DNA of 64,000 bases from Paraspadella gotoi (Eukaryota > Animalia > Chaetognatha): positions 21,246,645 to 21,310,644 of the forward strand of contig CM119264.1 of NCBI GenBank assembly GCA_051294375.1, given 5' to 3'. Positions 8,699 to 11,600 of the stretch are shown piece after piece. The translations under genes were made by a program, and so were the position numbers. The notes under the pieces are model-generated. The model was not told the origin of the DNA. It made no database searches and worked only from the letters and a program-made list of their open reading frames with translations. Position 1 is the first letter of the stretch. Every line of letters begins with the position of its first letter.

Positions 8699-11600
8699 TC
8701 ATTCTCCCGCGGACTTTTTGAACGCTCCCGCTTCGGCGTCCCAGATCATATTTCCCTTCACGACGAGATCACATTTCCCCAAGCACTTCCCTTCGTTGTA
8801 CATCGGCTTCCAGAATCCCAGGACGTCCACGCCTTTGGATCGATCCTCCAAATCCTTTGCCTGAGGATCGAGACATGAAATTTTTTTTTAAGGGGAGAGT
8901 GTGTAATTTAGGTAATTGGATTATTGAGCAGTTCTACTCCACGCCACTCTACCAGACGTTTTCCGAATCCTTACCTGATCGTCGAAAGAATCTTTGCATT
9001 CCTTGTCGCAGGTCGGCATCTTTTTGAGGACATTCCAACACTCTGTCAGAGACAAAGAGACTGACCAGGTCGTCTTGGAGACGATGACTCGGGGTAGACC
9101 CGTACAGACGGTATTAACGATATTGAATTTGTCTTCGTCGCTGACGCCTGCATCAAACGTAGTTGCGAAAATATTAATCACGTCACAGGATATACCAAAA
9201 ATTTCATCTAACTCAATGAACGAAAATTGTTGACTTTTCTCACTAATTTTTAGTAGTTTATAAAATGTTTTACGTATTTGGCCGTCGTTACATTTTAAAA
9301 ATATTTATTATCGACCCCTGAAGAGATAGTAATTATTGATATGTGTTAATGACAGAACCGTTCAATAATAAGCGGTCCCTGAGCTTCGGATCAGGCAGTA
9401 ACACCATGTTACAGGCGGGTTAAGCGCCCCGTCCCTCTTAACTGCCAGGCGGCCACCGGGCTAGAACCCCGGACCTTTGGGTTGGGAGGCGAATGATCTG
9501 CCTCCAGCACCAATGGCCGCTGATGAACGGTTGGTGGATTTTAGTCCACCATACATCCCCCCTCCCGTAGGGAGAAGTCTGTTGCGTCTCTTCAGTGAAT
9601 TGTTGTTGTTGGTGGAAAATGCGTCACCAATTTGACGCATGTCGCCTGATGTGTTGTTGCGGAAAGTGCATCGCATGGTTGAGGCATGTCGTCTGAAAGT
9701 GTTGTTGCTGTTGTGTTCGGAAGACGGGCTCACCAATGTAGAGACAATAATTATTGATATGTGTTAATGACAGAACCGTTCAATATAAGCAGTGCCTGAG
9801 CTTCGGATCAGGCTGTAACACCATGTTACAGGCGGGTTAAGCGCCCCGTCCCTCTTAACTGCCAGGCGGCCACCGGGCTAGAACCCCGGACCTTTGGGTT
9901 GGGAGGCGAATGACTTGCCTCCAGCACCAATGGCCGCTGATGAACGGTTGGTGGATTTTAGTCCACCATACCCCTAACGTTACCGTCGATTTCTGTCGTG
10001 AATTTCTGGATTAATAGGAGAAAATCTTGGATGTTTCTCTCGTCGCCGCAATCGATCGCCAACTTCATCGAGTCAGGAATTTCGCTCATGAAGGTGCGTA
10101 AATTATCCGGGGAAAGTTGGCGAGCCGCTTCGGTCTCGCACGCTGTCCGAACCACCTGAGAGGGGAGGTTGAATTCAAAAGGGAATGCAGAGATTGATGA
10201 GTGACTGGGATGTTTAAATGACGGACATCTCGACTCGGATTTCGAATAAAAATTCTAGAGAATATAAATATTCTTTGCCCATATGATTAAAAAAATTAGC
10301 CCATTCGTCCAAATCATAAGCGATTTTTATTGAAGTATTTTATCCATGAATAATCTATTTCAATAAATGAAATAATTATATAACTGTTAGTATACTATAA
10401 TTATCAATTATAAAAATAACAAAAAAATATTTTTCGTAAAAACAAAAGATCTAAGACTCAAAAGGACAACGCCCTCAAATACCTGCAATCGCCTAAATGC
10501 TTCCCCGGCGCTCTTGCAGATTTTCGAGTCGTCAACTTTGACCAAATCCATGGCGGCGTCGATTCGTTTGAGGATGTCCTCCTTGGCGGAAGGACTGCAG
10601 CAAAGGGGATTGGCCCACATCCGGAGAACGTAGTCTTCATGGGCGACGGGAATATTGCGGCGGAACCAAGACCTAGAAAAGAATTGGTGGTTTTACAAAA
10701 TGAATAGTAATAGTAACAGTAATAACCGATCAATAGAGCTTTAATTTTACCTGGCGATAGGCCTGAGATCGTTTATCTCCGATTCCTCTTCCTTGGTTAA
10801 TGTCAGGCAACGGGAAGGCAGCTTGTGTGTGATGCCTTTGCCGGTCGTTTGAGAATAAGTCTTTTCTCCCGGTTTCAGACTTAATTCGTCGCCTAAAAAA
10901 AAAATAAAAAACAAAACTAAACAAAACAAACAAAACACTTTTTTTTTTTCCTTCTTTTTTTACTGTTTTTGTTTGTCTTTTCTGTAGTTTCTTTTATTTG
11001 CCTTTTTGACGATAAATTGATAAATTTTGAATTAGGTTCGTTTTAAAATTTAAAGATTAGACTAAAGGTTAGGTAATGGATTAGTTTAAGTTTTAGGATT
11101 TGGGGTTACGGTTGAATATTAGAGATTATGGTTGAGGGTTAAGTTAAAGATTAGGTTGGGGTTAAGAATTATGGAGTAGTGTATAATTAGTTTTGTGGTT
11201 TAGTCACAGATTTTCAATGCTTATCTACAGATATATAATTAAAATTAAATTTAGGGATTAAGGAACAGAAAAGAGTTGCTTTTGGAAGAGAGAGCCGATT
11301 TTTTTTACTCTATTTTTTGTAGTTTTTTTTTTTTTACCCAATATAAAGAGCAGATTGACGCTGAATGGACTCTCCTTCAACGCGGCGTAGAGCAACTTCC
11401 TCGCCTCGAATTTGATTCTTTTTTTCGGCGGAAGTCGATGAAACAAATTAAGCGCCACCTGTCCACAACGCCAGGCGGGTAGGTTCGGATAGGAGACGGC
11501 CAGGCCCAGAGCCGTATCGTAGTCGACCATCACGCGTCTGAGCGTGGTATAAAAAGAAAGAAAGAAAGAAAGAAAGAAAGAAAGAAAGAAAGAAAGAAAG

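Follow-up and report, generated by a model that had tools for sequence, protein, structure and literature searches.

All ribozyme-carrying long terminal repeat (LTR) elements described so far are from plants and contain hammerheads, and the retrozymes of animals have been described without LTR features. In the plant LTR retrozymes (Cervera et al. 2016, PMC4918200) a type III hammerhead lies in both LTRs of ~330-350 bp, together with a primer-binding site (PBS) of the tRNA-Met type, a polypurine tract (PPT) and a 4-bp target-site duplication (TSD). Solo LTRs occur, a Gypsy partner is presumed, and circles of 600-1000 nt were shown by experiment. We analyzed a 64,000-nt stretch of DNA (contig CM119264.1, positions 21,246,645 to 21,310,644; hereafter the window), in which an intron holds a 652-bp element with the LTR-retrozyme layout: a same-sense predicted ribozyme in both LTRs, a PBS, a PPT and a 4-bp TSD. 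As in the plant elements, the monomer has no R repeat and the ribozyme fold is predicted to be blocked. In contrast to them, this element is likely animal, has a twister-like motif and a tRNA-like segment, and its circle is a prediction. The element may work like an LTR retrozyme; it is not classed as one, because its motif is twister-like and not a hammerhead.

The Helenus group of terminal-repeat retrotransposons in miniature, or TRIMs (PMC10886601), is the second close system. Like the element described here, these are short non-coding LTR elements whose LTRs contain tRNA-derived sequence with a GGTTC box B. They have a PBS, a PPT and, in animals, a 4-bp TSD, and measure 311-1263 bp (PMC10886601; TRIMp3). 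The PBS of Helenus-2_SyJa and Gypsy-32_NVi is of the tRNA-Trp type, as it is here (PMC10886601). In the accessible parts of that paper no ribozyme is described for Helenus, whereas in the present element a twister-like fold comes next after the tRNA-like part. Further differences are the absence of a run of four T after the tRNA-like part and the TA...CA termini. A motif search of the Helenus supplement with three variants of the twister loop L4 gave 0, 1 and 6 matches, none of which lay in a twister-like LTR context by eye; line breaks and other L4 variants can conceal matches in such a search. Kojima proposed that Helenus arose via insertion of a short interspersed element (SINE) into an LTR, and transcription of Helenus by RNA polymerase III (Pol III) is itself not validated in what is accessible of the same source (PMC10886601). 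Helenus and retrozymes are listed apart in a 2026 paper (PMC13570524).

Three other systems have parts in common with the element. The metazoan non-LTR retrozymes and the schistosome SM-alpha repeats (PMC7229834; PMC6765202) have an animal host and a small monomer between tandem ribozymes, and the schistosome units contain a Pol III promoter or tRNA sequence (PMC6765202), comparable to the putative promoter here. These systems carry type I hammerheads in tandem arrays and have no LTR, PBS or PPT (PMC7229834; PMC6765202), in contrast to the PBS, PPT and fixed ends found here. The twisters of Schistosoma Perere-3 and other RTE elements (PMC8501958) likewise sit in a retroelement and have a weak or absent P1 helix, and the P3 and P4 sequences of our element resemble the Sma-1 table of that study. 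Those twisters are single, unpermuted and placed at the 5' end of autonomous non-LTR elements, which is also where reviews locate twisters (PMC7761336; PMC6765202; PMC7229834). Our element has a P5-permuted fold, one in each LTR, that requires sequence from either side of the cut. Finally, the Tornado system (10.1101/2020.09.11.294140) resembles the processing proposed below in its Pol III transcript, two twisters, RtcB ligation and tRNA scaffold in the circle; it is synthetic, uses an external U6 promoter and is not mobile. In the accessible open-licence literature we found no twister in an LTR and no ribozyme-bearing animal TRIM, most subscription papers being outside the search. Every part is known, and the combination appears undescribed.

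Anatomy and dispersal of the element

The minus-strand element is almost certainly a miniature LTR retrotransposon of a many-copy, Helenus-type family. By its sequence it falls under the working definition of animal Helenus in the accessible text of PMC10886601, a class assignment by anatomy, not by descent from the described Helenus families. Its parts are as follows.

9319..9970, minus strand: the complete TRIM of 652 bp, bounded by TA...CA when read as transcript, its ends set by pile-ups of loose contig ends and by the flanks
9971..9974, no strand: TSD, upstream copy, CCCC on the plus strand
9315..9318, no strand: TSD, downstream copy, CCCC on the plus strand
9737..9970, minus strand: 5' LTR (copy B), 234 nt
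9723..9735, minus strand: PBS of tRNA-Trp type by sequence match, 1 nt after the 5' LTR
9554..9736, minus strand: non-coding internal region of 183 nt, present in many copies in the genome
9556..9566, minus strand: PPT, 11 purines, followed by TG (9555-9554) and the 3' LTR
9319..9553, minus strand: 3' LTR (copy A), 235 nt
9422..9838, minus strand: predicted monomer, 417 nt, a prediction only

The original prediction, made from the sequence of the window, had described two direct repeats 417 nt apart on the host-sense (minus) strand, and this holds. Aligned end to end, LTRs A and B (235 and 234 nt) show 8 mismatches and 1 gap, corresponding to 96% identity or a divergence of 3.8%. The PBS starts with TGG, 1 nt past the CA end of the 5' LTR. 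It was scored against honeybee tRNA-Trp, Gypsy-32_NVi and Helenus-2_SyJa in place of the host's own tRNA-Trp, and matches the honeybee tRNA-Trp PBS (PMC10886601 Fig. S2) at 11 of 13 positions, or at 12 of 13 with the majority letter at 9724, which almost all family contigs carry. Only short overlapping frames (no ATG required) cross the 652 bp. The internal region contains two related sub-repeats of ~45 nt with CAACAAC runs (9580-9715, minus strand), possibly a packaging or protein-binding signal, and departs from the family majority at ~10 positions.

The ends and the family were examined with contigs of four sequencing runs from three studies (X1, X5 and X7, all DNA, and X9), which were mapped on 8600-10800. 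The top run may be the source of the window. X9 is taken for RNA as a guess, and one of its contigs is spliced. The runs gave 14,143, 3,140, 2,324 and 1,085 contigs in this interval, nearly all of them within 9319-9970. Loose ends piled up at 9319/9740 and 9553/9970, with 9319, 9553 and 9970 or their equivalents seen in all four runs; 9740 is the same element end in copy B, displaced by a rare letter at 9739. Among the loose ends listed for X1, at least 64 contigs left the 3' end of the element before 9319 and at least 67 before 9740, while at least 61, 10, 107 and 26 left its 5' end behind 9553, 9555, 9970 and 9971, respectively. The exiting X1 contigs enter unrelated flanks, with an agreement of 0.41-0.49. 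Because contigs exit at fixed places into unrelated flanks, 9970 and 9319 were taken as the element ends. The family is dispersed and many-copy, with fixed ends at many loci.

The TSD follows from these ends. A duplication of acccct had been suggested earlier; on either side, one letter of it already belongs to the element's own terminus, and the contig ends, set independently of it, leave a 4-bp CCCC at this one locus. The TG between PPT and 3' LTR (9555-9554) is missing at most 5' junctions (61 versus 10 of the listed X1 contigs), as expected if integrase trims 2 bases and thereby gives the non-canonical TA...CA termini. A TG...CA start at 9972 was considered and rejected, since most junction contigs stop at 9970/9553.

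The spacer between the repeats had been taken for unique DNA, which proved incorrect. Over 9562-9709 the summed contig depth was ~1,200-4,300 times that of the flanks in all three DNA runs; this ratio is approximate and should not be read as a copy number. The spacer also carries the PBS and the PPT. The repeat-spacer-repeat unit occurs elsewhere too: a diverged 345-nt contig of X7 runs LTR-internal-LTR, so the arrangement recurs beyond this locus. Both element-flank junctions of the insertion studied here were found in X5 and X7, which come from a study other than that of the top run; no contig spans the whole element at this locus. No relatives were found in viral contigs, and a metagenome scan returned 13 loci, none of which (0 of 13) had twister pairing or wider similarity. 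The present copy reads as aged, with LTRs 3.8% apart, a private TTTT run and a P5 mismatch in LTR A. It is probably a weaker source than younger family copies and may itself have a low output.

The tRNA-like segment and the twister-like fold

Each LTR has the order short hairpin, tRNA-like segment, twister-like fold. A third, truncated LTR with the same fold lies elsewhere in the window.

9866..9937, minus strand: tRNA-like segment of the 5' LTR, 72 nt, putative Pol III promoter, called by ARAGORN at lowered threshold
9449..9520, minus strand: tRNA-like segment of the 3' LTR, called by ARAGORN at lowered threshold, fold z = -4.07
9789..9862, minus strand: twister-like fold B, P5-type permutation, predicted cut 9839/9838, matched by hand to a domain table
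9850, 9848-9846 and 9807-9800, minus strand: general-base G, PK2 strand and L4 of fold B, after the domain table of PMC8501958
9372..9445, minus strand: twister-like fold A, predicted cut 9422/9421, 1 mismatch in P5 and 1 in P3
18845..18993, plus strand: third copy (C), a 5'-truncated LTR that retains the whole twister-like fold, with a predicted cut at 18891/18892 and the same CA end

The tRNA-like segment of the 5' LTR has a perfect 7-bp acceptor stem, a T-arm and a GGTTC box B at 9885, with a fold z of -4.05. At default threshold ARAGORN made no tRNA call; at lowered threshold a cloverleaf-like call appeared in both LTRs, beside 2 other, poorer calls in the same 662 nt. On the transcribed strand the LTR has no run of four T. 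The sole TTTT run of the element on this strand is 9619-9616, and ~99% of the family depth differs at 9619, so that the family is without an obvious internal Pol III stop. Four U alone are a weak Pol III terminator in human cells (10.1101/2020.09.11.294140).

The twister assignment is a hand match to the published domain table of Liu et al. (PMC8501958). In 5' to 3' order the 74-nt fold comprises P5, the 3' strand of P2, GA, the strand of pseudoknot PK2, a 6-nt P1 remnant, U and the cut, followed by AA, P2, pseudoknot PK1, P3, P4, L4, P4 and P5. Read in this way, it is a P5-type permutation of the twister. A+1, A+2 and the general-base G followed by A are present in all three copies of the window. 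All three also keep the predicted Watson-Crick complementarity of the 2-bp PK1 and the 3-bp PK2, an 8-nt L4 (with L4 A6) and 5 of 5 base pairs in P4. PK2 is unlike the accessible Schistosoma table on both strands, yet its pairing is kept. Copy C begins at box B, and its P5 pairs at 7 of 7 positions. This copy lies between a GC-rich stretch of GGAGGC repeats (~18710-18844) and a repeat at 18993-19122 that is similar to 24008-24144.

A twister descriptor matched only the three sites in the window. According to it, cleavage falls just before 9838 and 9421, in agreement with the cuts of the original prediction (9839/9838 and 9422/9421). Among shuffled controls it matched 2 of 100 windows shuffled in blocks and 1 of 20,000 LTRs, rates that are too favorable to the twister assignment because the descriptor was composed after the sequence was known. 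Between copies B and C, 2 of the 74 fold positions are changed, both unpaired, as against 10 of 75 beyond the fold (one-sided Fisher p = 0.017); this test is a single pair, and LTRs A and B, with 3 differences inside the fold and 6 elsewhere, show no such depletion. In the family contigs 61 sites vary at 5% or more, and 0 of the 40 listed among them fall on P2, P4, L1, L4 or the pseudoknots. As a hammerhead, the plus-strand CTGATGA was rejected by eye, since it has no GAAA partner.

Published assays suggest how such a fold might behave. Of 1,948 natural twisters assayed, ~94% cleaved; defects in P1 or P2 were tolerated and defects in pseudoknots or catalytic bases were not, and misfolding is one suspected reason for failure (PMC11662667). 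P1 is reported to be dispensable (PMC8501958; PMC11662667). We conclude that the fold in each LTR very probably derives from a twister, and that the predicted twister is probably active in the family. The element is classed as twister-like, not as a confirmed member of the twisters.

Predicted processing and competing explanations

The reading that we put forward, tentatively and at a little under an even chance, is that the RNA would be cut in both LTRs, closed to a 417-nt circle and reverse transcribed by a Gypsy-type partner. Pol III would start at the tRNA-like segment of the 5' LTR (~9937) and read through the element, the family having no TTTT; read-through by host RNA polymerase II could supply further RNA. 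Both twisters would cut, leaving ends with a 5'-OH and a 2',3'-cyclic phosphate. A transcript from the 5' tRNA-like segment would thus yield a 99-nt head, the 417-nt monomer and a tail of ~121 nt that reaches the first run of T, at 9301. The monomer ends would be held together by P5 and a 9-bp helix and ligated by RtcB. tRNA-Trp would then prime at the PBS, reverse transcriptase would cross the junction and regenerate both LTRs, the PPT would prime the second strand, and integrase would trim the TG from one end and make the 4-bp duplication.

Several observations are consistent with this route. In the circular fold of the monomer P5 forms across the junction (p 0.86-0.99). The 9-bp complement 9950-9942/9782-9774 (minus strand) encloses the tRNA-like segment and the twister, and 7 of 300 shuffles reach 9 bp. 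In a Pol III transcript the 3' LTR alone contains the upstream arm of this helix. The monomer has no terminal repeat, which makes ordinary strand transfer impossible, and in the plant LTR retrozymes the missing R repeat was an argument for a circular template (PMC4918200). RtcB circularizes animal retrozyme monomers (PMC7229834), and Pol III with tandem twisters yields circles in human cells (10.1101/2020.09.11.294140). Of the retrozyme-like twister tandem proposed originally, the release of a 417-nt monomer that may circularize stays the leading idea, and the view of a tandem specific to this locus gives way to a many-copy TRIM.

A read joining 9422 to 9838 had been offered as a check for the circle. 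The junction recreates ordinary LTR sequence and also arises from an uncut LTR; it is not diagnostic alone. A circle from this locus is marked only by a read of at least 122 nt that combines the letters of A at 9497-9498 with the rare letter of B at 9794. The internal-to-LTR depth ratio in X9 was 0.080, which lies within the range of the DNA runs (0.042-0.147) and is not near the 1:1 expected of a dominant monomer; the library type of X9 is unrecorded and contig depth is a poor measure, and we therefore do not use this ratio as evidence. Nor does X9 depth on the element measure expression, since few-fold DNA carry-over multiplied by family abundance would give similar sums.

A number of findings weigh against the proposed route. 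Rfam gave no twister, hammerhead or tRNA at gathering threshold in the whole window, and none at E<=10 in 1301 nt and 181 nt, where it returned 1 and 3 chance-level matches; the twister identity asserted originally thus has the hand match on its side and Rfam against it. There is no P1 stem, only the 6-nt remnant between PK2 and the cut, and P2 consists of 3 bp with a bulged A and is outcompeted in nested folding. A local rival hairpin of -8.9 kcal/mol covers the cut site by joining the PK2 strand to the P2/PK1 strand. It is the dominant nested structure of all three copies (p 0.96-1.00), and the nested twister fold lies 10-14 kcal/mol above the minimum free energy; these energies come from a nested model without pseudoknots or Mg2+. 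In the tRNA-like segment, box A has the YGG and not the TRGCY motif, which occur together in most, not all, Helenus elements. Box B has a T where the consensus usually has a purine. An autonomous partner was not seen, with Pfam matches in 0 of 15 further long open reading frames of the window, and neither was the host tRNA-Trp. The assay data on tolerated defects were obtained, in the accessible text, with type-P1 twisters and not with the P5 permutation (PMC11662667).

The same hairpin is predicted to allow partial cleavage, which bears on an explanation that we regard as unlikely and still serious: an active but slow twister would form the ends of a linear RNA by one cut only, with circles as by-products. 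If the 3' twister alone cut, it would replace the Pol III terminator and leave a 99-nt repeat; a cut by the 5' twister alone would leave ~100 nt of repeat. With a repeat of ~100 nt, ordinary LTR strand transfer would be possible. The absence of T4 from the LTR suits this explanation, whereas the Helenus LTRs inspected are by eye mostly T-rich right after the tRNA-like part (PMC10886601). The contexts of the two twisters also differ, a Pol III transcript providing the 9-bp helix with its upstream arm for the 3' one only, and the twisters at the 5' ends of RTE-type retrotransposons act as end-formers (PMC8501958; PMC7761336). Yet the LTRs are identical at insertion and nothing obvious prevents double cleavage, and the doubly cut ends are predicted to be juxtaposed, which favors ligation.

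About equally unlikely is that the fold is a relic without activity. It would then have come in, probably, with a SINE-like insert, and the element would be an ordinary Helenus-type TRIM that uses standard strand transfer. The missing Rfam match, the absent P1, the bulged P2 and the blocking hairpin in 3 of 3 copies would fit a relic, as would Kojima's SINE-into-LTR origin of Helenus (PMC10886601); young families, moreover, are conserved everywhere. Against this, all catalytic and pseudoknot positions are intact in the three copies, the differences between B and C avoid the fold, and the listed variable sites spare P2, P4, L1, L4 and the pseudoknots. The hammerheads of plant retrozymes are likewise predicted to be blocked in the monomer fold (PMC4918200).

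A non-LTR tandem repeat, of the type of the metazoan hammerhead retrozymes or SM-alpha, would consist here of 1.6 units of a 417-nt monomer spread by target-primed reverse transcription. The length of 417 nt is near the monomer range of 170-400 nt (PMC7229834), and after cleavage the promoter would stand at the monomer's 3' end, as in the schistosome repeats (PMC6765202). We consider this very improbable in view of the fixed 5' and 3' ends at many loci, the PBS 1 nt after one repeat, the PPT 2 nt before the other and the 4-bp TSD; metazoan retrozymes are stated to be without LTR, PBS and PPT in the accessible text of PMC7761336, PMC7229834 and PMC4918200. An error of assembly, or a pair of separate insertions on either side of unique intronic DNA, would fit the absence of a contig across the whole element and a possible solo LTR in the sampled runs, and has a negligible chance given LTR copies that differ at 9 positions, a multi-copy spacer with PBS and PPT, both flank junctions in runs of another study and a further copy with the same LTR-internal-LTR order.

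Host gene, neighboring repeats and implications

The intron that holds the element is defined by contig 24 of X9.

9148..9983, minus strand: host intron, 836 nt, GT..AG, holding the element, from the spliced contig

This contig joins the exons 9983-10153 and 8974-9146 of the minus-strand gene. The repeats of the element are sense-oriented in the intron, and the first predicted cut lies 145 nt from the 5' splice site, the distance given in the original prediction. A competition of cleavage with host splicing, also raised there, found no support: the spliced X9 contig exists, though that animal may lack the insertion. Splicing has been reported to survive intronic cleavage, and fast cleavage has been reported to block it. 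The frame of the downstream exon (8921-9304, minus strand) stays open for ~150 nt into the intron, to 9304.

The host gene (~8570-17200, minus strand) is represented by a 5,226-nt spliced contig with one frame of 873 codons. Pfam finds in it five F5/8-type stretches, PAN and trefoil domains, and a kringle at 11934-12212; from these domains we take the host to be an animal. The middle exons gave no Pfam match and may resemble family-31 glycosidases; a PDB search with one exon of the gene gave no match.

Further repeats were seen in the window. A self-inverted family of ~1 kb is represented at 7531-8532 and 60970-61885, with pieces at 17904-18089 and 24007-24150; its arms are ~79% identical, and it resembles a foldback element or a miniature inverted-repeat transposable element. 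At 45892-46920, 35134-38944 and 48652-50885 lie stretches that are locally duplicated or in tandem, together with a low-complexity region whose long overlapping open frames have no Pfam match.

With less than even confidence, we suggest that the element could be the first animal LTR retrozyme and the first natural one based on twisters, a self-contained Pol III cassette that would make a 417-nt circle with a new, P1-less P5 twister and would have spread by Gypsy machinery to hundreds or thousands of loci. This P5-type twister was possibly rearranged from one of the RTE type. If true, an animal TRIM with tandem twisters would mean that retrotransposition by way of a circle had arisen anew, out of other components. 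The element would then be a natural counterpart of the Tornado system, twisters would gain a natural role that can be tested, and there would be a possible answer to the question of how RNA ends are set in a Pol III TRIM that has no internal terminator. The compact permutation would be one that current Rfam models miss, and similar elements may hide in other animal genomes. Numerous intronic copies in sense orientation would also provide a natural test of the effects of self-cleavage on splicing.

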